NCBI GenBank assembly: GCA_036172245.1
Contig: JAYWIR010000051.1
Location: 1-64,000, forward strand
Direction: 5' to 3'
DNA: 64,000 nt
From: Raillietiella orientalis
Lineage: Eukaryota
Shown: in pieces, positions 1,896-49,693 of the stretch
How positions within the stretch are numbered: position 1 is the first letter of the stretch
Layout of the letters: each line of letters opens with the position of its first letter
Translations under genes and position numbers: made by a program
Notes under the pieces: generated by a model
What the model saw: the letters and a program-made list of their open reading frames with translations, nothing else
Databases searched by the model: none
Told to the model about the DNA's origin: nothing

Positions 1896-1938
1896 CACAA
1901 GGCGTTCGACTCCGAGAAAACACGTCCGCCCTAGAGCT

Positions 1939-4045
1939 CACAAGGCATTGGAATGTGCAGACCAAGAACTCCTCTTGGAGCTTCTGGGTCGCATGGGCTT
2001 TCCACTCTCCTTGATTTCCTACCAGTGCTGTTGCTGGAGGAACGCGATAATTTCGATCCTTTTCACTAGTCAAAAGGTGTATGGCGTGCCGGTGCGGGGG
2101 GGCATACATCATGCAGATAGTATCAGTCTTCTGCTCTTTAGCAGCTCTTTTGAGTTGGTGCTGAGAGCGTACAGGGTGACTTCGGCCCCCTTGCTCAGCT
2201 CGTGCCCCGGCACGCCCGCCGTAAGTTTTTATGCCGACGATCTTCCGCTCCTGTTACCTATGTCCACTACGGCGAAGGCGGTCGGAGATTTCTTCGACCT
2301 GTGCAGCCGTGGGACCGGACTTCAGGTGAATAGGGCGAAGTCGTCGGTGGTGCCAGTTGGTGCGGCGTGGGCAGGGCAGCAGGACTGGCTTTGTTTGGGG
2401 ATACCCAAGGCGAGGTGCTTCAAGTATCTTGGTGTGCCGTTGGGGGTCTTCTCCCCTGCGGAAGCGTGGTCCAGCTGCCTCCAAAAAGTCGAAACGGCGA
2501 TCGGCCCGTTCCTGGAAGGCAAGTTTCACTCTCCGGAACGGGCTGCGGTTTGGAACGCCTTTGCGGCCCCCATCCTCCGCCCCTTGCTTTTTGTTTCTCT
2601 CGACCCAGGAGTAGTTAAAAAGAGGACGAAGGACCTCCTCCGCTTCGCCCTTTAAGGCGAGGGGGGCCCCGAGTCCCTTTGAAGGACCTTTGCGCTCCTC
2701 GTCGGGATGGCGGACTTAGCCTCGTGACGCTGGAGCGCGTGAAGAAACAGCTGCGATGGCGTACCCTCGCCATCGCAGTGATGATTTGGAGCACCCCGTG
2801 GTGCATTCCGGCTCGCCTCCTCGCCAGTCGTGTGTCCCGGTGCGAGGGACTCACGTATTTTCTTCTGTGCTCCGGCCGGAAGATCAGAAGTTGCGGCCTA
2901 CAGCTCGGGCGCATGCCATCGTCTGCCATGGAGAACAGCTGGATGGTTTGCTGCCCCGCCAACTCCTCCGCCTGGCTGAAGGAGAACATCGGAACGTGGG
3001 CAGTGGTGAACCAGAGAAGCCACGTAACGTGGAACCGTCTCCGATGCGGCCCCTACACCCGCTGCACTCTGAGGAATCTCCTGGAGAATCCAGCTAGAAG
3101 CACGTGCGCAGAGACAACCTGCCTGGCTACGGCGCTGCCTTTCCTGAGGAGGGCGCTTCACAGCAGTCGTACGCCAAGGTGGCAAGTCTCCTGCTCTATC
3201 GAGGGACGGGAGAAAAAAATGAGCGGCTGGACCATGGGTCAACTGGCGGACGCCACGACCCCGAGCGTCCACCCGCGAGCACTAAGAAGATGGGGCAAGC
3301 TGCTGGCCATCCCTGCGGATGTTCTGAAGTGGCCCCCGCTTCTTCAGGAATCCAGGATCCTGCCTCTTAAGTGGAAAGAGTCGGCGTTGCTGTTGTTGCA
3401 TTGGGGTTTACCCTGCAACGCACGCCGCTCTCACTAAACAAGAGGAGTTGTGGATCCTGCGTGTGTCAGGTGCGGAAAGCGGGAATCGCTCTCCCACCTT
3501 ATTGTGGACTGTGCTGCCCTCCGTCCCCTTTGGGAACGGTTTGGGACGACCCTCGGTCTCCCTACGGGCAGTTCCTCTAGAGACGTTCTTCGGCCCCTCT
3601 TCGTGAAGGACGCCCTGCAGCCAGCCTCAGCCATCGCAGCCTTGTGCTGCGTCCCAGGCATCGTGGCGGCATGGAGCGACACCAACAAGGAAGGAGTGGG
3701 TCAACACGCAAGGGATGTCATCGCATATGCCCAACGCTTCTTGCGGAGAGCTGCTGGATGGCCCTAAGTGGGGAACATACATATGGACCTCGAGGGCTTC
3801 CTTCAACGGATGGGCCCTCCTCTCAGCGAACAGTGATCCCTTCCCTGCCCTCCAACCTTTTTTGTTTGTTCGTGTTTTTATTTTTACTTTTGTTTTTTCC
3901 CCATCCCCTTTCGCTGCCTGGGAGTGCCACGCCGTGCTGCGTCCCGGCGTCCCGGTAGGTCCCGTGCATAAGGCCGTGAGCGGGGCCTGGTACCGCAATA
4001 GTAGAGTTTTAATTAATAAACGCCCCGGAAGCATCCGGGTGGCAA
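1939..4045 (+). mobile_element. Family G 3' half (RT from HKA.. to zinc finger, 3' UTR, terminus), frameshifted
   Basis: HKALECADQELLLELL...YADD...KYLGVP in ORF 1606-2655; CVRCGKRESLSHLIVDC; terminus AATAAACGCCCCGGAAGCATCCGGGTGGCAA ends 4045. Confidence 0.9.
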
Positions 4046-5920
4046 CACCAAATCCCCGGTGCAGGCGGTGCAAAGGGAAATCCTCGCAGAACTCGCGGAC
4101 CGAGATTTTCATGCGGTCCCAGTCTTTGAGGTTGCGGAGGATGACGCCTCTCAGGAACTGACGGAGATGTTCCGCCGCACCGGAGATGCGCGTCCAGTCC
4201 CCTGGCATACGCCACGCCCTGGATGGTGGTCCTTTGTCGCGTGACATAATTTCGATTATCAACCGGAAGTGGTCCGATAGCGTCGACGGAAGTTTCGCTC
4301 GTCTGCCGACACGTGGGCACAGGTCGGCGTCAAGAAAGACGTGGTCTACGCTTTGGGCCATTTCCGGTAGGTCTCCCAGCAAGTTGCGCGTACGCATAGC
4401 GGCGCACAACTCGTTGGTTGCGTCTTTTTGCCTGCAAGGCACACCTGAGAGCAGGCGGATGTTGAAATCCCCACCGATCAGATGTGCCTTGCGTACGTTT
4501 GTATCCGCCAGCCAGTCGCGCTTCAGGGTTTCGAGCAACCGGGAACGTTCCCCGTACCCGCGTCCTCCGCTCGGAGCGTACACATTAGTCACGACAAGGT
4601 CCATCGAGTCGGACCACGTAAGGATAAGCTGGCCAACCCGACCGTCCTTGTCGAATCCTACGTCCTTCACGAAGGAAGCGACCGCTGGCTTCATAAAAAA
4701 AGCGACGCCACAGGTGTTGCGAGCGCCGCATTGCCAAAACAGACGACCCCCTGCGATCCTTTCGATCTCCTGGGCGTTCTCCACGGTGATCACGTGGATC
4801 TCCTGCAGGAGTGCCAGGTCGAAGTCACGCAGGATGTCGTCCGTGTCCCGCCTGTTGCCGTCATCGCGCAGCCCGTTGACGTTCCAGCAGGGTACGCGTA
4901 TCCTACGGCGACAGGCGAGTCCAGGTCTTAATCCTGGGAAATTGGCAATGGTGCTCAAGCCACCTTGTCGGGCGGGACGCTAGGAGCAGGGGGTGCGTCG
5001 CGCACCGCTTCTCTCTCCTCCATGGAGGACGATTCGTCGTCGGAGCCTTGCAGAGGAAGTAGGGGTTCACTCACCTGCACATCCTCCTTCATGGGGGTCG
5101 CTAGCTGCACGGTGTCGGGGAATGAGATATTCCCACCCTCGCCTCCCACGCTGCTGGCTTCCCCCTCGGGGGCCGATTCATCCGCCTCCTTATTGATCCG
5201 GATGCGCCTCCTGGGATTCTGAGACTTACGTCCCGTCTTCTTTGGTGGCGCCTAATACTACTATGCTTCGACAACTCCTCATGGACGCTCGTTTTGTCCA
5301 TTGGGAGTGATACGCCTGTGAGGTGGACCACGATGGAGTGGTCCTCCGTCACAGGGAAGATCCTGAGGCCGTCCACCGTAATAGGGGTGTTCAGCAGTCG
5401 CTGCGGCAGACTTGCCTCTTTGCATGTTAGCTCAACTCGCTGGCCCCCACTAAGGACGGATAGGCCTAAAAGGTCTTTCTCCCTCACGTTCAACCTTTGC
5501 AGCCCCATTTCGAAGGAGCGTGCAATTTTTTCATCAAAATCAGTGCCTACCTTGTAGATCAGAGACGGCTTGTAGCCGCTGTCCTTGTAGGCAGTTTGCT
5601 CCGCTACTGCATCCGGGGATGGTGCAGCAACGACGTCACTCCAACTCCTCGCCTATGGCGAAGAGGGTCGCGAAGGGGCGGTTGCCCCCGATTCCGATGG
5701 GGCAAGTGCCCCGGATTCCGTGGGGGCGGATGCTTCCACTTTCATTGGTGGAGGAGAGCGTGTCGCTTCTCCTCCTCCAACTTCCATCGCGGTGTCCTCA
5801 GGCATTTCTGCCATGGGACACCGGTGCTCCCACACACCAGCCAACCAACGAAAAGCTTCCCACTAACCAGTCCGTGGAGCGATGCCATACCACGTCCGCT
5901 CCCTAGAACGACACGGGGAA
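4046..5920 (-). mobile_element. Family G 5' half: internally deleted ORF1 plus complete APE domain, cut at GFG
   Basis: ORF 3627-4958 carries WNVNGLRDDGNRRDT...SDH...RGFG; ORF1 ATG near 5815; knuckle region missing at about 5255-5270. Confidence 0.88.
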
Positions 5921-5921
5921 G

Positions 5922-6092: not shown

Positions 6093-6094
6093 CC

Positions 6095-8515: not shown

Positions 8516-11494
8516 TTTTCACTCGGGTGAGCCGGGGCTTTTATTATTAAAATTTTTTAAAATACACAAAAAAAATTTCATAATAACGTAATGATTTGTT
8601 TCTTTTTGTTGTTGTTGTTCTTGTTCTTGTTTTTCAGTCGGGACATATTACCCGAATGGCTTGAGGCACTTGTCGTTACCGACCTGAAGGCAGATAAGGT
8701 CCTCTACACTGGCGAAGGGGTGCGGAAAACAAAAAATAAACAAAAAAAAGAAAACGCTTGGGGGGGCAATGTTCTTCGGGAGGGGGAGGGAAGGAAAGGA
8801 ATCACGGTACGCCGTGAGGAGGCCTTTGAATCCGGTCTCGGATGCGGACGAGTGCCTGAAAGTGTTTTCCAAGACGGCGCCAACGGCAGGCCTTCTCCAA
8901 GGAGATGGTTGCCCAGTGGATGGCATTCCGACTGGCATGTCCTCTCCTTGACGCGGTCCACTTGTCCAGTATTCCGCGTATGCAACAGAGCACTGCTACA
9001 TACCCGTAAGCTGGCAAGGCGTTCCGCATCAGGAGTCGAAATATGTTCTTAGGGTCGCCTAGCGGAATGTTCAAGATCGACGAGAGTCGGTCCCACATAT
9101 CGCGAAGGGCAACGCACTCAATTATTACGTGAGGACAGGTTTCCCTTTCCCCGCACTCTGCGCAGTTGTCATCCAACATTCCCCGATGTCTAGTGAGACA
9201 GGTGTGCTCTGCTTCAGAGTCCCTAATGGAGCAGAAGCAACGCCGTCTCCTGCCACTGCAGGGGAAGGGTGCCGTTATCCCACAACGCCGGGTGCCACTT
9301 CACCTCCTTTGGAGGTACTTCGAGCAGCGCGCCCCAGCGTGAAAGTTCATTCGGTGGGACACTCGGGGTACTAGCGTACGCTAGTTCCCGGTACATCCAC
9401 GCCTTCAATAATGTTTTCCTGCCTCCGATGAGGCAGGACACTTCCCACGATGCCTCCTGCTGGCTGTCCCGAACTTCCCTGAGGGAGGGCAGCACTGAGG
9501 CAAGGAGGGTAAAGGAGGCCCACAGAAGCTTCCGTGGGTTGCTGACCATCTCCTGCAGTGGCTGACTAGCGTACCTGCCTCTACGGAGGCAGGAGAAGTC
9601 CTCATCGCTGGAGCCGTTGATTTTAGCCCATGCGGAAATGGATTCCTGGAGCCAGGTAGTCCAGTCCACATGGATGCAGGAGATCCACGGATTGTCTCTC
9701 AGCAGGGCAACCAAGTCCAGCAGCTGAAAACCAAAGTAGTTAGGTCTGCGGTCGTTGGCTACTTGGATTGAGGTCAATCCATGGCAGCCGGTTGCCCAGT
9801 AAGCCAGGAGTCTTGACGGTGCACACCAGGGTGCGGTCCAGTACTTTGCCACAAGGGCAAGTTTACGGAATTGGAGCTGTTGCTTCATGCGCTCCAGCGT
9901 CAGGAGACCAAGTCCACCGTGCCTGCATGGAGCGCACAAGACTTTCAGACGGACGCGTAGCTTCCGATTTCCCCAGAGGTCTTTTCTAATGAGGCCCCTT
10001 GTCCCTTGACGAATCCGGGGAGGTATGGGGAATACAAAAAGTAGGAGGCGGAGGAGGGGGGCCGCAAAAGCGTTCCACACCGCGGCCCATTCCTGCAAGT
10101 AAAACTTGCCTTCCCGGAACGGGCCGATCGCCAACTCCACCTTGTGGAGTCGGTCGGATCAGGCTTCCGCAGCGCAGAAGTCCCTCAACGGAACGCCCAG
10201 GTACTTGAAGTACCCTTTTGTGGGGATCCCCAAGCGGATCCGGTCCGACCGTCCTGCTCGCGACGAGTCCGGAGAAATGATTGACGACTTCGCCCTGTTT
10301 ACCTCGTAACCCGTCCCATGGTTCAGCAACTCAAAGAAATCTTCGAGCGCCCATGCCAGGGTGAACCCGGGAAGCAGAAGCAAAAGGTCGTCGGCATAGG
10401 CCGACACGGCAAGCGTGCAGGGACAGGAGCTCGGCAGGGTTGCCAAAGTCTCCCTGTATGCACTCAGCACCAACTCAAATTAGATGCAGAAGAGCAGGGG
10501 GCTCAAGCTGTCACCCTGCCGGATGCCGCGACGAACCGGCACGCAGTACACGTGCCGGCCGCTGAAACCGATATTGATTGACGCGTTGCGCCAGCAGGAG
10601 CGCAGGTAAGATTGAAGCACGGCAGGGAAACCCATGCGTTCCAAGAGCTCCAGAAGGAGATCCTGGTCGACGCAGTCGAATGCTTTGTGCAAATCGACCG
10701 CGACGGCAAAGGCTCCCGCCGAGTCCATCCCACCCTCTGCCCGATCTTCTTGGTCAGAGGGGGGCGCGAGGCTCCCTTGACCGTCCTGTGCAACGCGTTG
10801 TCGCAACTGCCACCATGAGCTGGCGAGGAGCAGGTTGGCCTCCATGGTTCGTCCGGGAACAGCGTAAGTCTGTTCCGGACTGACCACGGATTCCGCTACC
10901 CGTCCCAGACGCTCAGTCCAGTGCTTGGTGAGCAACTTTGCGTCCACATTCACCACAGTGATAAGACGCCAGTTGCCAACGTTGCGCAAGTCTCCTCCCT
11001 TAGGGAGGAGAGGTACTCTAACTGACCGGAACGAGTTGGCGACATCCTCGCGTTCTCGGATCAGCAAACACAATTTGAGCACCAGGAGAGCCAACTCTGC
11101 CGCTAAGTGGAGGTAGAATTCAGCTGGCAGGCCGTCTTCCCCTGGTGCTTTGTTTTTTTTTAGTTTTTTGATGGCGGAGACAATCTCCGCCATCGTAAAT
11201 TCCAGTTGAAAAGTGTGACGTTCCTCCTCCCTTAACGCGGGAGCACCCTCTGGCAGGCGACGCTGCGCAAAAGGGCTCTCTGGTGTTCTCTTAGCGTAAA
11301 AAGAGGAGTAGAAATCCCGCAAAATGCAGCAAACCTGCGCTGGAGATGAGTGCTCCTGGCCTTCTTCGTCCGGTAAGCAGGCAGACCCGGATTGCCAGGC
11401 CTGCCTCTCAGCTCCAGCCTTGAACTCCGCCAGGCGACGGACGTCGGGCTTGTTGAACAAACGACGGGCCTAGGAATAGTTCCTCTCATGCGGA
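8516..11494 (-). mobile_element. Family T 3' two-thirds (linker, RT, zinc finger, terminus), with stops
   Basis: ORFs 10480-11460, 10159-10473 (YADD), 9223-10140, 8802-9179 (CAECGERETCPHVIIEC); terminus hairpin at 8516-8546. Confidence 0.9.
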
Positions 11495-13622
11495 AAAGGG
11501 AGCCTTAACGATCGCAGTCGACCTCCATGAGGCAACTCCTCTTGGAGCTCCTGGGTCGCATGAACTTCCCACCCTCCCTGATTTCCTACCTGCGCTCTTC
11601 CTTGCGGAACGCGATAATCTCGATTACTTTCAGTCGTCAAAAGGTATATGGCGTGCCGGTGCGGCGGGGCATAAGGCAGGGTGGCAGCCTCAGCCCCCTG
11701 CTCTTTAGCACCTACGCCGACTTGGTGCTGACAGCGTACAGGGTGACTTTAACCCCCTTGCCGAGCTCGTTCTCCGGCACGCCAGCCGTAGCAGCGTATG
11801 CCGACGATCTTCTGCTCCTCTTACCTATGTCCATTCCGGCGAAGGCGGTCGTAGAATTCTTCGACATGCTTAGCCGTGGGACCGGATTACAGGTTGACAG
11901 GGCGAAGTCGTCGGTGGTGCCAGTTAGAGCGGCGTGGGCAGGGCAGCAGGACTGGGTCCGTCTGGGGATCCCCACGGAGAGGTGCATCAAGTACCTTGGT
12001 GTGCCGTTGGGAAACATCTCCCCTGCGGAAGCGTGGTCCAGCTGCCTCCAAAAAGTCGAGAGGGAGATCGGCCCGTTCCTGGAAGGCAACTTTCACTTGC
12101 TAGAAAGGGTCGCGGCTTGGAACTCCGTCGCGGCCCTATCCTTCGCCCCTTGCTTTTTGTTTGCCCCGCCCCCGTGGAATCTAAAAAGCAGACGAAGAAT
12201 CTCCTCCGCATAGCCCTTTCGGGCAAGGGGAGGCCCCGAGTCCCTTTCAAGGACTTGTGCGCTCCGCGTCGAGACGGCGGTCTCAGCAACCTGACGCTGG
12301 AGAGCGTGGAAATCCAGCTGCGATGGCGAATTCTCGCCATCGCAGCGAAGATGTGGAGCACCGCTTGGTGCGTTCCGACCCGCCTCCTGGACAGGCGTGT
12401 GTCCCGCTGCGAAGGACTCGCATCGTTTCTTCTGATCCCTGGCCGGAAGATTCGAATATGCGGTCTACTGCTCGGCCGCATGGCAACCCTGGCGAAGGAA
12501 AACGACTGGATGGTTCGTGGCCCCGCTAACTCCTCCGCTTGGCTGGAGAAAACTGCTGGCACCTGGGCCAAGAAGAACCAAAGGTGCGAAGACCCGATGA
12601 ACTGCCTCCGATTCGGCTTTGACGCCCGCCGAACTCTGCGTGAAATTCTTGAATTTCCATCGAGTTGCACGTGGGCGGAAGGGACACCCCTTGTTACGGC
12701 GATGCCCTTCTTCCAAAGAGCGCTTCACGAAAGCCGGAAGCCAAGGTGGAAAGTCTGCTGCCGTATCGCAGGCAGAGAGAAGATGATGCGCGGCTGGACC
12801 ATGGGAGAGTTGACAGATGCAACGACCCCTAGTTTCCAGCTGCGTGGATTAAGAAGATGGGGCGAGCTGCTCGGCATTCGATTTGATGTCCTGAAGTGGC
12901 CCCCGGTTCTACTTGGATCCAGGATTCTTCCCCTGAAGTGGCGAGAATCGGCGCTTCTGTGGCTGCATTGGGGTCTACCCTGCAACGCGCGCCGCTTCCA
13001 CTGGACTCGGGGAAGAGTAAATCCTGCGTGTGCCAGGTGTGGGGAGCGGGAGTCGCTTACCCACCTCTTAGTTGAATGCCCTGCTGTCCGGATTCTTTGG
13101 GATCGTCTTAAAACGGCACTGGGGATACCGGATGGTGGCAATGTTGGATGTGTCTACAGTCTTGTCTTCGTGCGGGACGCCCTCAGTCCAGCCGCAGCCC
13201 TGGCAGCACTTTGCTGCAATCGTGGTATCGTGGCCGCCTGGAGTGATGTCGAAGATGAAGACTGCATCGTGAGGGACGTCATCGAGTATGCTTCTTGCTT
13301 CCTGCAGAGAGCTACCCGATGGCCCCTTCTGAGAAAAATAAAAATGGAACTCGAAGGCATCCTGCAAAGGATGTGCTTTCCCAGTATTTGTCTGTGTTTC
13401 CTTCCCAGCCCTCGAAACTTCTTTTGTTGTTTGTTTTTCTCTTCTTATTTCATTTTTGTTTGCTTTCCCATCCCCTTCCACTGCCGAGGAGAGCCACACC
13501 GGGCTGCTTCCCGGTGTCCCGGCAGTTGCGGTATTGCGTGGCCGTCAGTAAGGCCTTGTACCACGTTCTGTATTGACTGTATTAATGTTTTCAATAAACG
13601 ACCCAGCGTATCCGTGTGGCAT
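11495..13622 (+). mobile_element. 5'-truncated G-like copy (RT to terminus)
   Basis: ORFs 11527-12213 (YADD) and 11934-14090 (CARCGERESLTHLLVEC); terminus AATAAACGACCCAGCGTATCCGTGTGGCAT ends 13622. Confidence 0.88.
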
Positions 13623-13631
13623 CACGAAAAG

Positions 13632-21941: not shown

Positions 21942-22158
21942 TTTTCACCCGGGTACGGCCGGAACGTTTATTGAAAAAACTCTGCATAAACCTGGTACGA
22001 GGCCCCACTAACGGCTACACAACACCGTACCTGCCGGGACGTCGGGACGCAGCCCGGCGTGACCCTCCTCGGCAGTGGAGGGGGATAAGGATCAAAACAA
22101 AAAGAAAAATAAAGATATGAAAAGAAAAACAAAAAGAGTTTGGAGGGAGGGGAAGGGA

Positions 22159-25100: not shown

Positions 25101-25755
25101 CCGACAGCGTCGACGCTACTTTGCCCCGTTTTCCGACCCGCGAGCACAGGTCGACATCCAGGAAGAAGTGGTCGATGCTGCGGTCCATTCCCTCCGCGTC
25201 TGCCAACAAGTTGCGCGTGCGCATGGCAGCGCACAACTCGTTGGCCGTGCGTTCTTGTGCTTCGGGCTCACCTGACAGCAGACGGAGATTGTAGTCTCCA
25301 GCTATCAGGTGTGCCTTCCGCACATTCGTGTCGGCCAGCCAATCGCGCTTCAGGGTTTCCAGCAGCCTGCTACGGTCGCTGTATCCCCCTTTTCCGCTCG
25401 GGGCGTGCACGTTCGTGACGATCAATTCGATCGAGTCGGACCAGCTGAGAATCAGCTGACCGACCCGACCGTCGTCATCAAAGCGTACGCCCTTCACGGC
25501 AGCGTCGATGGCCGGCTTGACGAAGAACGCGACCCCGCAGGTGTTGCGGGCGCCGCATCGCCAATACAGTCGACCCCTTGCGATCGCCTCAATCTCCTGG
25601 ACGTCTGCCGAGGTGATCACGTGGATCTCCTGCAGCAGGGCCAGGTCGAAGTCACGCAGGGTGTCGGCCGTATCTCGTCTGTTGCCTTCGTCGCGCAGCC
25701 CGTTGACGTTCCAACTGGCCACGCGGATTCGACGGCGACAGGCGAGCCCAGGTGT
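22159..25755 (-). pseudogene. ORF2 (APE-RT-zinc finger) with several stops and frameshifts
   Basis: Pieces 24946-25722, 23020-24591 and 22222-22914 are colinear with ORF2 at 54161-57748. Confidence 0.88.
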
Positions 25756-27506: not shown

Positions 27507-27622
27507 CGGACACCAACGATGTGAAAAAGCACACACTGAACCAAAAAAAAACCGCTTTCCGCTGCTCGTTCGCGGAGCGCCGGAAAAACACCGCCGTTCG
27601 CGAAGCGCCGCTCTCGAAAAGA

Positions 27623-37367: not shown

Positions 37368-38749
37368 CGCCGAAACCTGGAGGGAGACGGTTCAGGGGAA
37401 ACTGGTCGCAGAACTCGAGGACTGAGCTCTTCAAGTCGTCTTAGTCCGCGAGCGACTGCAGATGGAAGCCTTGCAGGAACGAGCGAAGATGTTGAACTGC
37501 TCCTGCGAGGCGCAACCAGTCCCCTGGCAAACGCCACGCTGTGGAGGGTGGAGCTCTACCGCGCGGGTATATTTCTATCACGAGCCGGGTATGGTCGGAA
37601 AGTTCGGATGGCACTGCCCCTCGATTTCCCACCCGCGAACACAGGTGGTTGTCCAGGAACATGTGATCGATCCTCGTCTCCGTTTCGGCGTCACCGGCCA
37701 ACAAGTTGCGCGCGTGCATGGCAGCGCACATCTCGTTGACCAGCTGTGCGCGAATGTCGGTCGCACCTGCCAGCAGGTGGACGTTAAAGACACCGGCAAT
37801 GAGGTGCTCCTTTCGCATGTCTAGTTCGGCCAGCCAATCTCGCCGCAGGCCTTCGAAGAACGCCATGCGTTTCCCGCGCCTGTGGCTCGTTCTGGGCGCG
37901 TACACGTTGGTCACGACGAGGTCGATCGCGTCGGACCACTTGGCAACAAGCTGCCCGATTTGACATTCCCCGTCGAAGTGCACGTCGCGCAGCGCATTAA
38001 CGACGGCTGGCTTCAGCATGAAAGCCACACAGCGGGTGCGGTCTCTCCCGTTGTCGTATATGAGCCGCCCGCCTGCGATCCGTTCGATTTCCTGGGCCTC
38101 CTCTGCTTGGAGCACGTGCGTCTCCTGCAGAAGCGCCAGGTCGAAGTCCCGCAGGCTGGCGGCCACTTCTCTCCTCTTGCCGTCGTCGCGCAACCCGTTG
38201 ACGTTCCAACAGATTACGCGCAGTCGCCGGCAGGAGGAGAGTCCACGCGTTGGTGTGTTTATGGTGTTTGCTTCCCGTCCTCCGCCTGCTTTTCAGCAGG
38301 CGGGAGTTGTGTGTCCATTGCGAAGGGGTTTTCCTCGCAAGGAGGCGGTCCGTCGGTGGTTGTGGTGGTGGTTGGAGGATCCTCCTAGGCCAGGGACGCC
38401 TCCGGCGAGGAGTCGCGAGACATCGCGGACATCGCCTCCCCGTCGTCGTGGTCCGACCGCATTTCCTCCTCCGCCGGTGGAGGTGCGGAGCGCCGCGGAT
38501 TGCTACCTTGTGGCCCGCTTTGCGCTTCGGGAGAGCGACAGACGGAGCGTTGCCGGATACGGCTTCGGACTCGGAAGTCTCCGGTCCTTTCGCTTCAGCC
38601 GGACGCCTCAAGGCCTTCTTCTCGGCCTTGGGAGGTTGCTGGAGCATGACTGCCAACTCTTCCGTTGCCTTATTGAAGTCCCGGTCGTCGCTGCTCACGC
38701 TGGGCTCGCGACTTTGTCGCAGCGTCGGCGTTCGCGTGGCGGCGGGACA
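37368..38749 (-). mobile_element. ORF1 C-terminus and APE, cut at GFG (same family as 6650-8515)
   Basis: ORF 37441-38193 (LQETH, NVYAP, IDHMF, SDH); RRPAEAKGPETSESE shared with ORF 6914-7330. Confidence 0.87.
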
Positions 38750-38999
38750 GGCTATGGATCGAGCGCCTAGACGGAATAGCGGAGTCCTTGGTAAGTCCAG
38801 AGCAGACGTATGCTGTTCCGGGGCGGTCGATGGACGCGAATCTCTTCTTCGCGCGAACATGGTTCGAGTTGCAGCAGCGCGTGGCGCAGCAGAGCCAGGC
38901 AGCCGAAATCGCCGCTGCCAAAGGTAAGCGGCGGTGTTCAAGGCAGGATGGAACGCCGGGAGCCTTAGCGTTCGCAGTCGATCTCTGCAAAGCGTTCGA
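38750..38999 (+). mobile_element. Family M RT fragment ending at KAFD; probably continues at 46427
   Basis: SPEQTYAVPGRSMDANLFF...AVDLCKAFD. Confidence 0.8.
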
Positions 39000-40027
39000 T
39001 TTTCACTCGGATTTCGCCTGGGCGTTTATTGTAAAATAAACTTTTACAAACACGTGCGGTGGCTGGACCATTGCTCCAGCCACGCACGAACAAACACAGA
39101 GCCTGCCGGGTCACCGGTTCGCAGACCGGTACGGTCCACCACGGCAGAAGGGGGAAAGGGGAAAAACAAAAAACAAAACAAAAAAGAAAAGAAAAGTTGG
39201 GAGGTTAAGGAAAGGGATCACAGTTGCTGGTGGGGCCGTTGCATCCTTTGCAGGATGCCGGCAAGCTCCTTCTGTATTTCTGGATCCAGGTGAAGCCATC
39301 GGGACGCCCTCCTCAGGAACTGGGAGGCTGGCTGAATGGCACCCTGGTCGCGTTGTCCTCCCGTAGCCTTGCTCCAAGCGGTGACGATCCCGCGAAGGCA
39401 GCACAAAGCTGCTAACGAGGCCGCGGGCCGAAGGGCGTCGGCAACGAACAGGGCCTTCAGTGCGTCCCTGGGGTTGCTGCAGGGGATTCCGATGGCCGCG
39501 GCAAACCGAAACTATAGGGGCCGAAGGGCAACACAATCCACTAGCAGGTGGGGGAGGGAATCCCGTTCCCCACACCTGACGCAATTGGAATCCACCGCTC
39601 CCCAGGTCCATTGGTGTCGGCGGCCGTTGCAGAAGAGTCCCCAGTGCTGCAACAGTAGAGCCGACTCCTGCCATTTTAAGGGGAGGGCAAAAGGGGGCAA
39701 CTTCAGATGTTCAGTGGGAACATCGAGCAGCGCACCCCAGCGCAGAAGTCCATTGGGAGGCGTACTCGGGGTCGCAGCGTCTGTTAACTGGCCCGTCTTC
39801 CACTCTCCTATCTTCTTCTCCTTTCCGGAGATTGTTACTGTAACCACCCACTTCGCCGCAACATCGCTGTCCAGATCTTCCATCAGAGAGGGCAGCGCAG
39901 CAGCGAGGGGGGTTCTTCCTGCCCACGCTCTCTTCTTTGGATCCTCCAGGATCTCGCGGAGCGTGCAACTTCGGTAACCCCCAAACAGGAACCTTCGTTT
40001 CTCTTGAAAGCGTTGCATGCCGAACTG
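39000..40027 (-). mobile_element. Family K 3' end
   Basis: Near-identical to 49694-50742; terminus at 39000-39030. Confidence 0.88.
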
Positions 40028-43000
40028 AAGTCGTCCGCAACTACTGTCGCGGAAGCCTCCGAAAATCGCAAAGGCGAATGGAAAATTGTGGAGAGGACGA
40101 AAGAAAAATCTCCAAAAAAGGCTCCGCAACCTCCATCCGTGAGCTCTTACAAAGGAAAAATGCATTCGCGAAAATACGAAAACATGCGCATCTTGTGACT
40201 TTTCCAAGGAAAAAGCCAGCGCCTTCAACGCGTGCAAGTCCGCTTCTCTGACCGCCGAGAAGACCATTCCGGTGCAATCGGACGGATGCAAGCGCACGTC
40301 GATCGTGCCACCATCAGGATCCGCAAAGGAGTCCGATAGCGCAGCTCAACGACGCGTTACTCGCGCGGGAGCGAGCGCCCGCAGGGATGAAGCCCTGAGG
40401 CGTGACACACTCGCCGCGGAACGGCGAGTGCTCACTCCGGATCCCACAGGTTCTGCACCCGGGGAGGAGCATCCGATTACGTGCAGCACAGTTGAGGCCG
40501 GTGGCGACCGCGCCCTCCAGCCCGTCGTGCTGCTTCGTGCCCGCTCGCTGGGTGAGGCGAGCACCACGGCCTCGCTTTCCCAGCCGTGATGAGGGCAATC
40601 GCGTCTTCTCGTCGTGTTGCCGTAACGTCTTGGAACGTCAACGGGCACCAACACGAGGAGAAAAGGCGACTAGTGGCTGACGCTCTGCGCGCCTTCGACT
40701 TGACGCTCCTGCAGGAGATTCACAGCATCTCCGGAGAGCAGACTGCCGCAATCGAACGGCGCGCGGGCGGAACGCTACTTTATAGGTGCGGCGTTGCACG
40801 TACGTGCGGCGTCGCTTTCCTCGTGCGAGGAACTTTGGCGGGAGCGGTGCGCAGCGTTCGTTTCGACACGGAAGGCCGAGTGGGACAGCTTGTATCCAAG
40901 TGGTCCGACTCGATCGACCTTGTCGTAACCAACGTGTACGCGCCGAGCGGTGGTGGACGATGGGCCGAAAGGATTGAGTTCTTCGGTACCCTTCAAAGCC
41001 AGTGGCTCACTCGATCTCACCCTACTGTGGCCCATCTCATTGCGGGGACTTTAACGTCCACCTGCTTTCCGAGAATAGATCCCACATAAGGGAAAAGTTG
41101 CTAGCGGAAGAGATGTGCGCGTACGTGCACGCGTGCAACTTGTTCTCTAGCGACCCTGTTATGGCAGCAACGCCGGACCACGTATACCTTGATGAACACT
41201 TCCTCTGTCGAGTGGGTCGGAGAGGTCCCGTGCCGTCCGTGCTTTCAGACCACAACAGGCTCGAGTTCGAGTTGCTCCCGCCAGGCAAGGGGCCTCCAAA
41301 CTGTTTTTGGAGGATTCCGGCAGACTGGCTAAGCCACCCGGAGGCGGCTGAGCATCTTCGCCAGTACCTCCTCAGCTTTGCCATAAGTGAGCTTGAGGTC
41401 TGGGACGATCTGAAAAGATCGGTCCGCGAGTTCTGCTGCCGGTTTCCCTGGCACCAGCTTCCGCGCGGCTTCGGAGAAGGCGTAGCCAACAGCAGAGATC
41501 TTCTGCTGGCCCGCTTTTTTTCCAGGCGCGCGGACGTTGTCGATTATCCAATTACAAGGCCAAGGCCGAGCGCCAGTTCTGGCAGTCAGTGGAGGCAGTT
41601 CTGCTCGTCGACAAGGACCGGGAATGCTCGGCGCCAGCCTACGTGCGACGGATAGTCAGGCGCTATTACTCTTCTCTGTATGCAGAGGCACCGACGGAAC
41701 GCAGCCTCTCCCGGCTGCTTCTGCCGATTGATGCACCTGTTGTAGACGAGGAGGAACGCGCGCGTCTTGATGAGCCCTTCACGGCAGAGGAAATTTCCTC
41801 GGCCATCTCGGGGCTCAAGAGACGAAAAGCGCCAGGCGAAGATGGGCTCCCCGCGGAATTCCTTCAGTGTTTTGTGGCGGAGCTCATCCTTCTGGTGCTC
41901 CAACTCTCGTGGCTGATGCGAGACTCGGGCAATGTCCCCGCCCCGTTTCGCTCTGCGAAGGTGCGTGCACTGCCGAAAGGCGGAGATTTGCGCCAACTGA
42001 ACAACTGGCGTCCGATCACATTAGTGAATTCGGACGTCAAGTTGTTCTCGAAACTTTGGGTGGCGCGGATGGGTAGGATCGCGGAATCCTTGGTAAGTCC
42101 GGAGCAGACGTACCCTGTTCCTGGGCGGTCCATGGACGCGAATCTCCTGTTCATCCGCACATGGCTGCAATTGCACCATCGTGTGGGGATGGATCGTCGT
42201 GTGGAAGCGACGCCTTCGATCTCTCACCGAAGGAGGCGCGGGACGCAAAGGGAGACACCGAGAGCCTTGGCGGTTGCAGTCGATCTGCACAAAGCTTTCG
42301 ATTGCGTGAACCAAAAGCTTCTTCTTGAGCTTTTGGAACGTCTGGGTCTTCCGGCATCCCTGTTGGCGTACTTGCGCTCCTGCTGGCGCCACGCGATTAC
42401 ATCCATTATTTTCAGTGACTGTCGCGTGTACGGCGTGCCGGTACGACGAGGAATTAGGCAGCGTGAGGCTTAAGCCCACTGCTCTTTAGCATCCATTTTG
42501 AATTGGTGCTGGAGGCTTACAGGCTGATGCTAGCCAACCTGCCGAGCTCCTGTCCAGGTACGCCAGCCGTGGCAGCCTATGCCGACAACCACCTTCTCCT
42601 GTTGCCCTTGTCCATCCCGGCGACATCGCTTGAAGTCTTCTTTGAGTTGATTAGTCGCGGTGCGGGCGTGAGCGTCAACAGGAGTAAGTGTATGGTTGTT
42701 CCGTTGGGTACGACGTGGGAGGGGCAGTCCGACTGGATCGGCCTGAGAATCCCCACGGGCAGGTACCTCAGGTACCTTGGCGTGCCGGTGGGCGACTTCT
42801 GCGTCTCAGAAGCGTGTTCGGACTGCCTTCGGAAGGCAGAGCGTGCACCTTGCCCGTTTTCAGGAGGCGAGTTCGTCTTGCCGGAACGGGCCAGCATCTG
42901 GAACACCTTCGTTGCCCCCCTCCTTCGCCCCCTGTTTTCTGTTTGTCCACCCCCCCAGGAAGTCAAAGTCTGGGCGCAGCGACTTCTACGCAAAGCGTTG

Positions 43001-44494
43001 TGGGCCGCTGCTAGATTCTGTGTTAGACTTAAAGACTTGGTGGCGCCGCGTCAGGATGCAGGCTTGGGCATCCTCGACTTAAACAGCATCGAACTGCAGG
43101 TGCAGTTCCGCATGCTGTTGCTGTGTGCGAAGGCTGTGGTGTACGCCGTGGTGCTCACCCGCACGCCTTATACTGAGGCGCTGCTCGTGAAGCCAGGGAC
43201 TGATTTCGGCACACCAGAATTGGGATTGGCTTTCCGCTAAGGCAGCTTTCCTGATTGCTGGAAGCCCAAAGCTGGAAATTCTGCCGCCTCATGAACATTA
43301 ATGCATGGCGGCAGGAATCTTTTTCATCGTTGCAGCTTCCGAAAGAACGAGCCCGGAAGATCTTCGGCGCCTGCGACTTCTCCTCAGTCATCCAATGGAC
43401 GAAGTCATGCAGGACAAGAAGATGTCGGATCGTCTGGCCGCCACACCACTCGCCGCAGCGCTGTCTGCCCTCAGGGCAAGCAACGACGGTTGCCTACTGG
43501 CGGAATGGGAGTTATCCTGCAAAATAGCGGGAATCAGTAAGCTCCTCGGCAGCTGGACGACAAAGGAGCTGGTGCAAGCCGCCACACCTCGGAATCGGGC
43601 GAAGGGACTGCTTCGGTGGAGCGAACATTTAAGTGTGCCCCCCGGAGAGATAGTGGTTCCCCCCGTTTGTTTGGACAGCTCCGTGTTCCCCCTTAAGTGG
43701 AAACAAGATGTGCTGCTCTTTTTACATTGTGCATTTCACTGTAATAGGCAGCGAAGCATCGTTTCCGGGGGAGCTGCTTTGCCAAACTGTTTAAGGTGCG
43801 GAGAGATCGAGTCTTTTTCACATCTTTTGCTGGACTGCGGTGACCTCCGGGAACTGTGGCGAAGTCTCACTTCGGCCATCATGCCACAAGGAGGCACTGC
43901 CATTGATGTGCTGCGGCGCTTCTTCAGCAGAAATGGACTTTCGGTTGGCGCGATTGTCGCAACCATGTGTTGCGTTCGCGCCATCGTGAAGGCCCGCTAC
44001 GCCCTAGAGTTGTCAGCGCAGCGAAAGGAGGCTCACCTGCTTGCAGCTCAACTCATGGAGAAGGCTTCAAGCTGGTCTCATCTTCGTCACAAGGTGAATG
44101 AGGACATCACCGGCATACATCGCCGGTTTACACATCTTTGAGAACGGCGTAATCTGGTCACCCCTGCGACCTCTCGCCCACCCATACCCCGTCCTCGTTC
44201 GCTCGGTAAAATTTCCGGTGCCCCTGCTTTTCTCCCCGTGTCTTCCAGAGCGATCCCAAAGACCCTTATCCCGTCCTCCTTATTTATTGTTTTTATTTCA
44301 TTTTGGTTTCTTTGTGTTCCCCGCCCCCCCACACCGTTCACAAAACTGTTACTCTCTCCTGCGAGCCAGCAATCTTCTCTTCATTCTTGTTCAGTCGTCG
44401 GTTGGGAGTTTGGTTCTTAACTGGTTTATTTTGTATAATTGCTTTTTTTGGTTATGTTATATGGAATAAACGCCCCGGCGTGACCGGGTGAGAA
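40028..44494 (+). mobile_element. 5'-truncated family M copy (ORF1 C-terminus, frameshifted ORF2 40589-44141, terminus)
   Basis: ORFs 40586-41089, 41002-41655, 41589-42473, 42503-43240 (YADN), 43305-44141; terminus ends 44494. Confidence 0.88.
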
Positions 44495-46426
44495 ATCTCT
44501 TGCGCTTGTTCTGCAGAGATCACGTAGATCTCCTGCAGCAGCGCAAGGTCATAGGACTTTAGAAGGGCGGCCATGTCTCGTCTCCTGCCGGCGTCTGTCA
44601 TGCCGTTCACGTTCCAAACCGCGATGCGCAGACGACGGCGTGAGGAGATTCCCGGCATTACTGCTGGGAAGATTAAGGTGCGGGGGAGCCCTCCTCTTGC
44701 GAGGCGGGCGGGATGTCCATGGGGGTTTCGGCCTTCTCAGGCACCTGAGGCACCTGTTCGGCCTCCACCCCCTCCATCCCCTCCGTGTCCGCGCGTGGGA
44801 GTCTCTCGGGCGACGTGTCCCGAGAGTTTCCCACGCTCATGGCACCCTCGCTTGCGGAAGCCATCTCTTGCCCTTCCACGGGGGAGACGAGCTTCCTTGG
44901 ATTTGTGGACTTACGTCCAGCCTTCTGGCGCGGTGCCGTGGAAACGGAGGCTGCGTTTCCGGCCTCCACCTCGGGGTCGGAAGTGGGGGACTCCTGAGGG
45001 GAGGCCGGACGCCTTACGGCCTTCTTGTCAGCCTTGGAGGGTTCTGGCTGCTACGAGGCTGCCAGTTCCTCCGTGGCTCGCGCGAAGGCTACGTTATCGA
45101 TGATGGTGTCGATGACGGACGCCGCCGCCGGCTTGCTCCCCTCGCTGTTGACTGTGTCAACAGATTGGAGGTCGTCGGTAGCGGCGAGTTCTTTCCGGCA
45201 GCGTTCGGCAACATCGAGAACGCGTTCGAAAACGACGCTGCACTCTTTAATAATCGCGCTACCCTGCTCTTTCTGCTTCTGTTGGTAGGCGATTTTCTTT
45301 TCCATCCTCCTCTCCTTCTTTGATTCTTTGGCCGTTGTCACTTGCCACCCAGTCTCCTGACCGGCTCCCTCAACTTTTTCGGCGTTGATCGCCGGGGTCT
45401 CGGGTGCGGCCTGGGTCTTGGGCGCTGGTGGCACAACCTTCGCGGCAGCTTTCGCCGCCAGCCTTTTCTGTAGAATCCGGGCGCGTTTTTTAAGGTTTCT
45501 CTTGGAAACCATTCGCACTGCTGCTTTTGGGCACACCTCCCTCGTGTGGCCCATTGTGCCGCATACTTGGCACTGCACATTGGGACACCTCTTTTTGAGT
45601 TGGCCCGACGTATTGCAGAAGCCGCAGTATTTCGGCTTCCCTACATACCAGAGGTCGACGGTTTCGCCTTCGACCACCAGTTTGTGGGGAAGAGTGCAGC
45701 CCTCCCGAACGGTCACGCGCGCAGCAGTGAGGCCGTGCTGCAGCCCCGTGTAGTCCTCGAAAGGACCAACTTTCGTCCACTGCGTGTGGACCGTTCCGTA
45801 TTCCTCCAACGCGGCGCGAACCTGTTCCTTGCGCTTCCGCGCGGTAACACCTAACAGGTGGACCACCATGCTGCGGTCCGCCGTAATAGGGAGGAGCCTG
45901 CGCGTCTCCATCACAACGGGGGTTTTAAGCAGTCGTTGGGGCAGCTCTGCTTGTTTGCAGATGACCTCAACGTACTGACCCCCACTGCGGATGGTCATCG
46001 TCCTGAGCTCCTCCTCTTTCACATCGAGAGCGCGCATGCCCTTCGAGAAGACGCGCGCGCTCTCTAAAGAATATAAATTGCCTACCTTGTAGAACAATGA
46101 GGGGTTGTACCCTCCTCTACATAGGACGACAATTCCGCCGCGGCAGCAGGCGATGCCGCCGACACAACGGCGCTCCACGCCCGCGCTGCAGCGGGGACCG
46201 ATTCTGTGGGGGCGGATGCCCCCCCTCCATCGCTTCCGGGGGCGACGTTGCCGCCGCCCCCTGGCTCTCCATCGTTTCTAGAGGCGGCGTTTCCGCTACC
46301 CTCTGGCCATCCCTGGTGGTCGCGTCAGGCATCGATGCCTGATCGACCACCGAACCACACGACGCTTGCACTGGGGGAGACTTCCTAGCACGAGGAGCAC
46401 CGAGAAAACACGTCCACCCTGGAGCA
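44495..46426 (-). mobile_element. Family K 5' end, ORF1 and APE start
   Basis: ORFs 45051-46178, 44673-44969, 44452-44658 (MPGISSRRRLRIAVWNVNGMTDA). Confidence 0.88.
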
Positions 46427-48483
46427 CGCAAGGCGTTAGACAGTTTATACCAGGACCTCCTTCTGGCGCTTCTGGGACGCCTAGGCCTCCCGACGCACCT
46501 CCTCGCCTACTTGCGCTCCTGCTGGCGCCATACGTTATGCTGTATCTCTTTCAGCGGGCGCCACGTGTACGGTATTCCCATACGGCGGGGTATCAGGCAG
46601 GAAGACAGCTTAAGCCCCCTGCTCTTCAGCATCTTCTTTGAGTTGGTGCTGAGGGCGTACAGGCTGACGCTGGCCAACTTGCCGAGCTCCTGCCCGGGAA
46701 CACCGGTCGTGGCCGCGTATGCTGACGACCTTCTCCTGCTGCTGCCCATGTTAACCCCGTCGTCCAGGCTCGAGGACTTCTTCGAGCTCATTCGTCGGGG
46801 AGCGGGCCTGAGCGTAAACAGGACGAAATCAACCGTTGTACCGGTTGGCTCCACCTGGGTGGGGCAGTCCGACTGGATCCGCCTGGAGATCCCCACGGGC
46901 AGGTGCTTGAAGTACCTCGGCGTTCCCTTGGGCGCCTTCTGTCCAGCAGAAGCGTGGTCGGACTGCCTTCACAAGGCCGAGACTGCTCTGGGCCCGTTCC
47001 AAGGCGGCAGGTTCCTCCTGTCGGAACGGGCCTTCGTGTGAAACATTTTCGTTGCCCCCCTCCTCCGTCCCCTCTTTTTTGTTTGTCCCCCTCCCTACTC
47101 GGCTAAGCGCCGGGCGCAACGCCTGTTGCGTTACCCCCTTCAGGTCCAGGATATGCCTGAAGGAGTTGGCAGCTTCTAGGCGGGATGCAGGATTGGGCAT
47201 CCTGACGCTGGAGCGGATCGGGCTTCTAGTGCAGTTCCGCATGCTGGCACTTTGTGCGCAGCTCTGGACTACTTCCTGGTGTGCTCCATCGCGGCTGCTG
47301 CTACGGCGCTGAACGGGTGGCGACGGACTACGTTCGTTGCATCTGCGCACGGAGCGCGTCCAGAAAGGATTCGGCTGCCCCCTGAAGCAGCTCGCCACGC
47401 TTCTGGGAAAGTATGAGTGGATCTCTTGCCGGCCGACGAACTTCAACGCCTGGAGGCAGGAAGCCTTATCGTCCTGGGCAGCGCAACAGGATGTGTCCCG
47501 TTTGGAACTCCGTTGCGTGAAACTTTCCCCATACTGTCCAGTGGGGGAGGTGCTGGAAGACCAGGACCAGTGGACACGCCTAGCCGCTACGCCACTCGCC
47601 GAAGCACTGTGTGCACTGATGGTGCGAGATGACAGTGACCTGCCGGCGAGGTGGGAGATCACCTGCGAAATTGCAGGCGAAACCCGACTGCTGGGCAGCT
47701 GGCGGACTTGCGAAGTGGCAGACGCTGCCACACCTCGCATCCTTGCAAAGGGGCTTCTCCGGTGGAGTGAGCTCCTCGGGGTGCCCACCGATGAACTTGT
47801 GGTCCCTTCTGCGTGTTTGGACGCGACTCTCTTCCCCCTTCGGTGGAAGCAGGACGCTTTTCTGCTGGTGCATTGGGGTTTGTACTGCAACCAGCGGGCG
47901 CACCTGATTTCCGGGGGAGTTGCTTCCCCGAACTGTGCCAAATGCGGAGCGGTGGAATCGCTTCCGCATTTGCTGTTTGAGTGCGGTGCCCTCCAGGAGC
48001 TGTGGCAGCGGCTGTCTTCAGCGCTCCTTCACCCTGGAAATACCGCACTGGATTGGATGGGCCGCTTCTACACGCGTGGCGGACTTTCTCTTGGAGCGGT
48101 CGTCCCAATCATCTGCTCCATCCGCGCCATTGTCAGGGCCCGCCACGCACCGCACATGCGAGCAGTCCCAACATCGGTCCCCGACACCGCAGCCTGCAAC
48201 CTGCAAATGGCTGCCGGGTGGCCACATCTTGGAGCCGAATTGAGGACGGAGATCGGCGGCATTCACCGCCGGTTCTGAGAATAGGAACGGTTAGACTGTG
48301 TACCCCTGTCCCCGCCCTCCCACCCAATTCATTTATTTATTTTCCCACCCCCTCCCGTTCCGAAATCTCAGTGTACCCGGCCTGCGTTCCGGGAATCTAC
48401 TCCCCATTCTCTGTTCCCCTTGCCTGGGAACACAGTTCCCAGTTGATATTAAGAATGAGAGTCCCGGCGCAACCGGTAATAAA
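46427..48483 (+). mobile_element. Family M-like 3' half starting at RKALD
   Basis: ORFs 46511-47041 (YADD) and 47337-48278 (CAKCGAVESLPHLLFEC); variant terminus CCCGGCGCAACCGGTAATAA near 48463-48482. Confidence 0.83.
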
Positions 48484-49679
48484 CGAAAACGCTGCATTCT
48501 TTAATTTGCTCGCTTGCCTGCTCTTTTTTCTGGCGGTACGCGAGCTTTTTCTCCATCCTCCTCTCCTTCTTTGATTTTTTGGCGGTTGCCACTTGCCACC
48601 CAGGCTCCTGGCTAGTTCCCTCGACTTGTGCGGCGTTGCTCGCCGCGGTCTCGGGTGCGGCCTTGGTCTTGGGCGCAGGTGGCATAGCCTTCGCTGCAGC
48701 CTTCGCCGCCAGTTTCTTCTGCAGCAGCCGGGCGCGTTTTTTATGGTTTCTCTTGGAAACCACACGCACTGCTGCTTTTGGGCACACCTCCCTCGTGTAA
48801 CCCATTGTGCCGCATACTTGGCACTGCACGTTGGGACACCTCTTTATGAGGTGGCCCGATGTATTGCAGGAGCCGCAGTATTTCGGCTTCCCCACATACC
48901 AGTGGTCGACCGTTTCGCCTTCGACCACCAGTTTGTGGGGAAGAGTGCAGCCCTCCCTAACGGTTACGCGCGCAGCCGCGAGGCCGTGTTGCAGCGCCGT
49001 GTAGTCCTCGAAAAGACTATCTTTCGTCCACTGCGCGTGGACCGTTCCTTATTCCTCCAACGCGGCGCGAACCTGTTCCTTGCGCATCCGCGCGGTTACA
49101 CCTAACAGGTGGACCACCGTGCTGCGGTCCGCCGTACTGGGGAGGAGCCTGCGCGTCCCCATCACAACAAGGGTTTTGAGCAGTCGTTGGGCAAGCTCTG
49201 CATGTTTGCAGATGACCCCAACGTACTGACCCCCGCTGCGTATGGTCATAGCGCTGAGCTACTCCTCTCTCACATCGAGAGCGCGCATGCCCCTCGAAAA
49301 GGCGCGCGCGCTCTCTAAAGAATAAACGTTGCCTACCTTGTAGAACAATGAGGGATTGTACCCCTCCTCTACATAGGCCGACAATTCCGCCGCGGCTGCA
49401 GGCGATGGCGTCGACATAACGGCGCTCCATCCCCGCGCTGCAACGGGGACCGTTTCTGTGGGGGCGGATGCCCCCACCTTCACCGCCTCTGGGGGCGACG
49501 ATGCCGCCGCCCCCTGGCTATCCATCGTCTCTGAGGGCGGCGTTTCCGCTGCCCCCTGGCCATCCCTGATGGTCGCGTCAGGCATCGCTGCCTGATCGAT
49601 CACCGAACCACACGACGCTGGCACTGAAAGAGAATTCCTAGCACAAGGAGCACCGGGAAAACACGTTTGCCCTAGAGCG
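48484..49679 (-). mobile_element. Family K 5' end and ORF1 to ECSV
   Basis: ORFs 49259-49684, 49049-49249, 48449-48928. Confidence 0.87.
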
Positions 49680-49693
49680 CACAAGGCGGTCGA
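49680..49693 (+). repeat. Isolated 14-bp target-site copy (CACAAGGCGGTCGA) between two tandem K elements
   Basis: 13/14 match to CACAAGGCGTTCGA (HKAFD codons); flanked exactly by a K 5' end and a K 3' tail. Confidence 0.8.

Follow-up and report, generated by a model that had tools for sequence, protein, structure and literature searches.

Antisense insertion of a LINE family at a fixed site in the reverse transcriptase motif A of related LINEs

Introduction

Can a retrotransposon take as its target one short stretch of the catalytic gene of its own relatives? The question is raised by a 64,000-nucleotide stretch of DNA from Raillietiella orientalis (contig JAYWIR010000051.1, positions 1 to 64,000, assembly GCA_036172245.1; hereafter the window), in which copies of one long interspersed nuclear element (LINE) family, K, end within other LINEs. 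K encodes an apurinic/apyrimidinic endonuclease (APE) and a reverse transcriptase (RT). An earlier note on this DNA had proposed that K homes to the RT catalytic motif of its relatives with base precision, disabling a competitor with each insertion; we re-read the sequence and all the junction coordinates and letters quoted there are correct. We found good support for the view that K inserts site-specifically, and in antisense, into RT motif A. Furthermore, we read the overall pattern as mutual nested self-targeting of a LINE guild and not as a K-specific attack on the catalytic motif.

K termini fall at one point of RT motif A

The evidence comes from the junctions of K with its hosts. Site A, as we call the point at which they lie, is a 14-mer with the consensus CACAAGGCGTTCGA, which corresponds to the codons H/R-K-A-F-D of RT motif A. 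This stretch aligns with motif A of the solved R2 and L1 RTs, and the Asp preceding it is presumably, by analogy with L1 ORF2p (the protein of open reading frame 2, ORF2), the first catalytic Asp. The K 5′ ends are located at 1895, 46426 and 49679 (K on the minus strand) and at 31761 (K on the plus strand), and each adjoins a 14-mer that follows the pattern YRYAARGCGTTCGA when read along the sense strand of the host. The K 3′ tails (...GTGAAAA in K sense) start at 39000 and 49694, both directly after ..TTCGA as had been noted before. Altogether site A holds seven of seven K termini, namely four full 5′ ends, a 29-nucleotide (nt) 5′ remnant (1910-1938) and the two tails, and probes for K termini across the 64-kb window found no K end outside it. 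K is always antisense to the host LINE.

The features of this region are the following:

545-1895, minus strand: K1, 5′ part of a K copy (5′ untranslated region (UTR) and ORF1), with its 5′ end at 1895
1896-1909, plus strand: orphan site A 14-mer CACAAGGCGTTCGA beside the K1 5′ end
1910-1938, minus strand: 29-nt remnant of a second K 5′ end, which together with 1939-1952 forms a 43-bp tandem duplicate of 1867-1909
1939-4046, plus strand: host H1, a G-like LINE, from motif A (CACAAGGCATTGGA at 1939; starts at ORF2 residue 614) to its 3′ end
29596-31760, minus strand: host T, which starts with the site A 14-mer at ORF2 residue 614 and runs to its 3′ end
31761-37368, plus strand: K2, a full-length chimera; next to its 3′ end lies site B of an APE piece in antisense (37369-38292)
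38751-38999, plus strand: upstream part of host M, ending with the 14-mer TGCAAAGCGTTCGA (38986-38999) at ORF2 residue 618
39000-40030, minus strand: Ka, a K 3′ part with the tail ...CCGAGTGAAAA, 93.5% alike to 49682-50742
44494-46426, minus strand: K3, 5′ part of a K copy (5′ end, 46426), interrupted at 44494 by the antisense element Q, which meets it with its 3′ end
46427-48480, plus strand: downstream part of host M, starting with CGCAAGGCGTTAGA; its 3′ end abuts the antisense K4 in K ORF1
48489-49679, minus strand: K4, 5′ part of a K copy (5′ end, 49679)
49680-49693, plus strand: 14-bp spacer CACAAGGCGGTCGA from the K4 5′ end to the K5 3′ end, a tandem via the re-used duplication
49694-52052, minus strand: 3′ part of K5 (K tail, C-terminus of ORF2, RT), in which motif A, CGGAAAGCATTCAA, is unoccupied
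52053-57955, plus strand: G, a full-length LINE lying antisense in the K5 RT at site D (DAKLLA)
57956-59763, minus strand: 5′-ward part of K5 with the RT N-terminus and the K APE (58192-59265), interrupted at 59763 by the antisense element O, which meets it with its 5′ end

Ka and K3 are probably the same insertion. The segment 37358-38690 (minus strand) was tried as the downstream part of K4 and rejected, being just 66.7% alike to K5 over the same region.

The sequences next to K are RT sequence in frame. In a tblastn parse with the intact ORF2 of the window, the host RT reading frame continues past the 14-mer, with pieces starting at ORF2 residue 614/615 at 1939, 31760 and 46430, and the host piece upstream of a K tail ends at residue 618 at 39000. 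Accordingly, the flank is genuine RT, cut at the H/R-K-A-F-D codons. For host T the 14-mer lies at 31747-31760 and reads TCGAACGCTTTACG on the plus strand, which is CGTAAAGCGTTCGA on the minus strand. The claim that four K 5′ ends stop at the H/R codon thus holds in that all four are at site A; at 1896, however, just the 14-mer follows the K end, then comes the 29-nt K remnant, and host H1 begins only at 1939.

Both kinds of K terminus also define the length of the target duplication. The tandem at 49680-49693 has an exact 14-bp spacer between the K5 3′ end and the K4 5′ end, and the two pieces of host M that flank K overlap by 14 bp (38986-38999 versus 46427-46440), 11 of these 14 positions being identical. 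Together with the comparison of flanks, these two cases bear out the 14-bp antisense duplication predicted for at least three host families (the G-like H1, T and M). A target duplication of fixed length, with tandems spaced by the duplicate, was found for the K tandem, the M pair and G.

Motif A is covered by 12 RT copies, of which three are occupied by K (H1, T and M), one is deleted (V) and eight are free. The deletion in V (11500-11540) is 20 bp long and takes out exactly the K-A-F-D codons of motif A (gtcgacctccatgag joined to gcaactcc).

Two further observations concern the K 5′ ends themselves. The terminal 11 nt at the K 5′ end, taken on the sense strand of the host (GCCCTAGAGCG; 1885-1895, 46416-46426 and 49669-49679), resemble the host RT sequence GCCCTAGCG, located 15 nt upstream of site A (e.g. 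55835-55843), a likeness that could be chance or the remnant of an old transduction. Moreover, 1867-1952 is a 43-bp tandem duplicate made of the terminal 29 nt at the K 5′ end and the 14-mer, with units that differ at 7 of 43 positions (counted by eye); template jumping and unequal exchange between two junctions are the candidate origins.

The junctions are independent

The 5′ parts of K1, K3 and K4 are 89.7-94.3% alike (K1 being 94.3% alike to K3 and 90.0% to K4) and K2 is 79.6-81.1% alike to these, whereas the three host flanks are mutually 70.0-74.3% alike. Moreover, the hosts carry different 3′ tails. With K copies 90-94% alike and their hosts 70-74%, the junctions are therefore independent and K is younger than its hosts, which answers the concern, voiced along with the original proposal, that all junctions might descend from one duplicated insertion. 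K has thus entered at least three older families, the G-like H1, T and M, in separate events. Within the 64-kb window, independent copies share target sequence, nucleotide and orientation. By reasoning rather than simulation, the chance that three further independent junctions share base and orientation in about 5.9 kb × 2 strands of homologous target under random insertion is negligible.

K2 is probably a recombinant

In K2 the 5′ end lies in host T, at site A, and the 3′ end (37368) at a second site, site B, of an antisense APE piece. The idea of a K junction geometry fixed at both ends consequently stands for the site A 5′ end at 31761 and falls for the 3′ end of that copy. By sliding identity, K2 is K5-like (84-93%) to about 35,800-35,900 and beyond that point resembles V (87-97%), another LINE of the window, while comparison with the wrong side drops to 44-65% or 62-78%. 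The host around K2 is without exactly the segment between sites B and A. We considered K2 as a single retrotransposition event with ends at two sites and rejected it, the sharp switch from K to V and the exact loss of the host segment favouring recombination. In the simplest account, K2 would be a homologous recombinant of a site-A insertion of K type and a site-B insertion of V type in one host. Under such recombination after insertion, the 5′ junction of K2 stands as a K junction and the V-type tails are at site B in both cases.

The window consists of related LINEs

The window has a G+C content of 59% and is almost wholly made of related LINEs with APE and RT encoded (Pfam). Its intact ORF2 (1038 amino acids, 54020-57136) belongs to element G. 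The closest database relatives of this protein are plant L1-type ORF2 proteins, at about 25% identity; one unnamed metagenome protein also matches it, at 67% identity, and its top match among solved structures is human L1 ORF2p (E 8e-44). By these relatives, the ORF2 of the window leans towards L1. For K, the Pfam domain Exo_endo_phos (APE) was found with E 2e-12 on 58192-59265 and RVT_1 (RT) on 50956-51735, both in K5 on the minus strand. The APEs of K and G are 59% identical, and the ORF2 C-terminus is far more divergent between the two (41%).

Common to all families is a 3′ terminus of the form AATAAACGCCCCGG-loop-CCGGGTG with a short A-rich tail, which is probably an RT recognition element. 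Its parts are AATAAA, a short GC hairpin (CCCGG-loop-CCGGG), TG and the short A-rich tail, and it was seen at the 3′ ends at 4046, 5926, 6648, 13629, 16351, 21942, 29596, 37368, 39000, 44493, 49694, 57955 and 62844. Before every K 3′ end, AATAAA stands at about 25 nt, and the A tail is just 4 nt long. The chlorophyte signal is TGTAA; the elements of the window have AATAAA before the 3′ end.

Other families use other antisense sites

K is not alone in its precision. Site B corresponds to ORF2 residues 341-346 (LPRGFG), between APE and RT, and has four direct 3′ junctions, those of H1 (4046, in the antisense element E2), F (16351), S (21942) and K2 (37368), which abut antisense host after GG(A/T)TTYGGNG. 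Two tandem re-insertions, X1 (5926) and V (13629), occupy a duplicate that resembles site B, immediately before the 5′ ends of E2 and N. For S (21942-27615), both flanks of the insertion at site B are in one host, P/R. Host pieces were also seen to restart at the same site B point; the coordinates of the site B junctions are 4046/4047, 16345-16351, 21941/21942 and 37368/37369, and also 5926, 13629, 11490 and 27622.

At site D, G is inserted in the K5 RT with a perfect 14-bp duplication, CAGCAACTTGGCGT (52039-52052 and 57956-57969). Sites D and B have 6 of 9 nick-proximal bases in common by our own count. At site E, K4 and K5 are cut at one point of K ORF1, the 3′ end of M abutting K4 and the 5′ end of O abutting K5; a duplicate of about 14 bp (CGAAAACG(ACG)CTG) is common to 48481-48494 and 59750-59763. 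Site E may be one more specific site; otherwise, the two cuts would belong to two units of an array that was duplicated.

Among the 15 3′ junctions listed, four are tandem re-insertions and the other 11 of 11 abut an antisense LINE. Look-alike sequences are used at non-homologous positions, by P at CCCAATCC (with the P 5′ end about 90 bp upstream of site B), by G at AAGTTGCTG and by M at GCGTTTTCG in K ORF1, which speaks for recognition of sequence and not of position. Sorted by type of tail, K uses site A (2/2), V-type elements site B (2/2) and G-like elements site B (4/5). Such faithfulness to a site is not universal among families: two copies of family T (29591-30753 and 62839-63998), 95% alike, have their 3′ ends next to unrelated points of antisense ORF2 (around residues 455 and 400).

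These sites bear on the proposed benefit to K. The notion of a homing element that kills competitors proved too narrow, as other families use antisense sites B, D and E and K re-inserts into its own duplication.

A likely mechanism of K insertion

We consider it likely that K is an L1-like LINE family with APE and RT whose copies enter one defined sequence through target-primed reverse transcription. In the junctions, the host ORF2 sense strand meets the K 3′ end (...GTGAAAA) immediately behind ...GCGTTCGA, within the K-A-F-D codons, and the K 5′ end is joined 14 bp upstream of this point, which gives the 14-bp duplication. The first nick would fall after TTCGA on the host sense strand of the CACAAGGCGTTCGAC duplex; the host strand ending ...GCGTTCGA-3′ would prime on the 3′ end of the K RNA, and the second cut would be made 14 bp upstream. 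These are the two cuts that the earlier note predicted, and they appear to fit the junction geometry. Under such targeting of site A, K 3′ flanks would begin TCGAACGC.. and 5′ flanks end ..CCTTGTG, inside antisense RT. K can re-insert, making tandems of the form K-14 bp-K, because the duplication recreates the target.

The machinery of the element (the APE, possibly with annealing of read-through flank RNA as proposed for the LINE R1) may recognise about 8-14 nt around the nick. No complementarity of the K 3′ end to the primer strand was seen by eye. The seat of specificity could equally be the APE, the ORF2 C-terminus with the 3′ UTR, or flank RNA. The benefit for K would be a safe, self-renewing target rather than the killing of a competitor.

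As the junctions of this locus show, K is one member of a guild of related LINEs, in which each lineage has its own preferred antisense site in the ORF2 of relatives or, for O and M, in K ORF1. G-like elements and V use site B, with G once at the look-alike site D, and O and M use K ORF1, and the locus grows as a nest of alternating orientation.

More tentatively, LINE lineages may have partitioned base-precise antisense “homing” sites in each other, K taking motif A, G/V-type elements the LPRGFG linker and its look-alikes, and O/M-type elements K ORF1. The site might be inherited with the 3′ module (ORF2 C-terminus and 3′ UTR), possibly via flank RNA, and mutual self-targeting might build alternating LINE-only islands similar to Zepp clusters or centromeres. 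This is a possibility that we entertain rather than favour. Such a partitioned self-targeting system would be broader, and arguably more interesting, than K alone.

Alternative explanations

The alternative that survives best, doubtful as it is, is in part compatible with target-primed insertion at a defined sequence. It supposes a weakly specific nuclease (T-rich, G/C, nick) and a K read-through RNA with the downstream duplicate (UCGAACGCCUUGUG) that anneals to the nicked host strand (...CACAAGGCGTTCGA-3′), the site being inherited from the parent copy. Consistent with it, lineages with related ORF2 hold to different sites at the frequencies given above, nick contexts have in our own reading little in common beyond TT, and K 3′ junctions are exact, without extra bases. 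Read-through is plausible given the position of AATAAA before the K 3′ ends and their 4-A tail, and the same idea has been put forward for R1 in the accessible text of its description (PMC2718515). However, DNA is unable to tell annealing from recognition by protein, the look-alike off-sites of P, G and M keep the nick-proximal bases as would a nuclease footprint, and family T, with 95% identity at two unrelated flanks, argues that inheritance of the site is not universal.

It is very improbable that a single insertion of K into an RT was later copied by segmental duplication or unequal crossing-over. The pile does recombine, as seen from the K2 chimera with its deletion of the host segment between sites A and B; there is the junction duplicate of 43 bp at 1867-1952, and K4/K5 with the O and M pieces could be two units of a duplicated array. 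Copying, however, would give flanks at least as similar as K, whereas the flanks are 70-74% alike and the K copies 90-94% (80% for K2), and the hosts are of different families with different 3′ tails.

An equally slim chance attaches to the 14-mer belonging to K, through 5′ transduction or a transcript that starts upstream, in which case it would be uninformative on the target. The junction at 1896, where another K 5′ remnant and not host comes after the 14-mer, speaks for this reading, which is contradicted at three of four junctions: the RT frame runs on from residue 614/615 at 31760 and 46427, and the host RT reaches residue 618 at 38999 before the K tail. Furthermore, the 14-mers vary between copies in step with their hosts.

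Least credible of all is near-random insertion with survival just inside dead LINEs that mimics targeting, for while the window is almost all LINE and a surviving insertion must be in LINE, this cannot yield a base-exact junction, a fixed orientation and a fixed 14-bp duplication over independent events.

Points against targeting of site A, and searches beyond the window

Several observations weigh against insertion of K at one defined sequence. The junctions come from one 64-kb window, with three K-occupied host RTs and one tandem. Site A is unoccupied in 8 of 12 RT copies, two of which have an intact GCGTTCGA, at 18427 (perfect consensus) and 24057; either the 14-mer alone is insufficient or the activity of K was brief. 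The split ends of K2 could, alternatively to recombination, mean that each of its junctions is determined on its own. In our own reading, nothing beyond a weak TT-N3-4 pattern is common to the nick-proximal sequences of sites A, B, D and E, and part of the precision may come from something besides the nuclease. Element Z, oriented like the truncated K1, has its 5′ end directly behind it (about 529-545), the sole apparent sense-oriented junction seen.

To these are added the results of wider searches, in which no K copy was found outside the window. One public DNA run contains 0.19 of the sampled window words, and no RNA run is listed. Compared with 38900-50800, this DNA run gave 260 short contigs, of which 17 were at least 99% identical, 50 were 95-99%, 79 were 90-95% and 114 were below 90%; there was no K terminus among the 6 listed of its 152 loose contig ends. 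A metagenome scan with the shared 3′-end pattern had 0 matches, and a metagenome scan with the ORF2 alignment returned five loci, 25-35% identical, none of which is a K relative. In the Protein Atlas, generic APE+RT clusters were found.

Comparison with known systems

Known site-specific LINEs target rRNA and small nuclear RNA genes, telomeres, microsatellites and a few DNA transposons. If true, a LINE whose fixed target is the coding sequence of its relatives' catalytic RT motif would add a new class to these targets. In the full texts accessible to us, a literature search found no LINE that targets the RT-coding motif of other LINEs, and an earlier description is possible.

The closest parallel in geometry is R1 of arthropod 28S ribosomal DNA. 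The accessible part of its description reports a 14-bp duplication, tandems spaced by the 14-bp duplicate that arise when an element re-inserts into its 5′ copy, and off-target insertion where 4-9 bp close to the nick are identical, and it proposes a role for read-through flank RNA (PMC2718515). As far as that text goes, K resembles R1 in one fixed nick site, the 14-bp duplication, tandems, look-alike sites and precise 3′ junctions. In contrast to R1, the target of K is the RT coding sequence of relatives, always antisense, and not a multicopy RNA gene; K is L1-like by its best matches, and sister lineages here each have their own site within one target gene.

LINEs of the Tx1 clade are also found in other transposons, and the accessible text lists Tx1L in Tx1D, Tx1-Mar in Mariner-N4_AMi and Tx1-9_AMi in Harbinger families (PMC4494074). 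From this partial account, the likeness is that of an APE-type LINE that prefers a defined position in another mobile element. The targets there are non-autonomous DNA transposons, whereas those of K are the catalytic-motif coding stretch of autonomous LINEs, including its own kin. The best matches of K are L1-type, and it is likened to the Tx1 clade by target behaviour.

With homing endonuclease genes, inteins and group II introns, K shares a recognition site in a conserved, slow-drifting coding motif. K differs in being antisense and destroying the ORF, without splicing or other restoration of the host gene, and in using target-primed reverse transcription and not double-strand-break repair; moreover, the “host gene” of K is a parasite too. 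Splicing that restores the host gene, the mark of homing, was not found, as K is antisense and several kb long, host ORFs are interrupted and no sign of splice signals was seen. K is therefore homing-like in its choice of a conserved motif alone, and the analogy with inteins made earlier fails, since nothing restores the host ORF.

The locus also offers a natural system to ask whether nuclease, ORF2 C-terminus or flank RNA is behind the target choice of LINEs, a matter relevant to programmable LINE-based insertion tools.

Nested growth of the LINE pile

The pile of elements in the window resembles the clusters of Zepp-type LINEs, which the accessible passages describe as targeting existing copies (PMC8226300, PMC3446292). 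Zepp and ZeppL are green-algal L1 elements whose nested-element clusters have 61% G+C in the passages at hand (PMC3446292), against 59% for the window, and the nested insertion into existing copies is common to both; the likeness is one of description, not of sequence. Like these, the window holds a cluster of nested insertions. The Zepp lineage is also marked by a single cluster on each chromosome, at the centromere. According to the accessible passages, 5′ truncation has left mostly 3′ ends in Zepp arrays; the four K 5′ junctions, by contrast, are full-length. The passages on Zepp and ZeppL that we could consult give no base-level target, orientation rule or duplication length, and the accessible literature on nested LINE clusters says just that elements target existing copies. 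Site A together with sites B, D and E would provide a base-level rule for the growth of nested LINE clusters, such as the clusters reported from centromeres of green algae.

Orientation alternates in the nest W > N > F > P > S, and insertions are also found of H1 in E2, of K in H1, T and M, and of G in K5. The five-deep nest at 9415-28552 alternates strictly, as W (minus) > N (plus) > F (minus) > P/R (plus) > S (minus), and its innermost element, S, is full-length.

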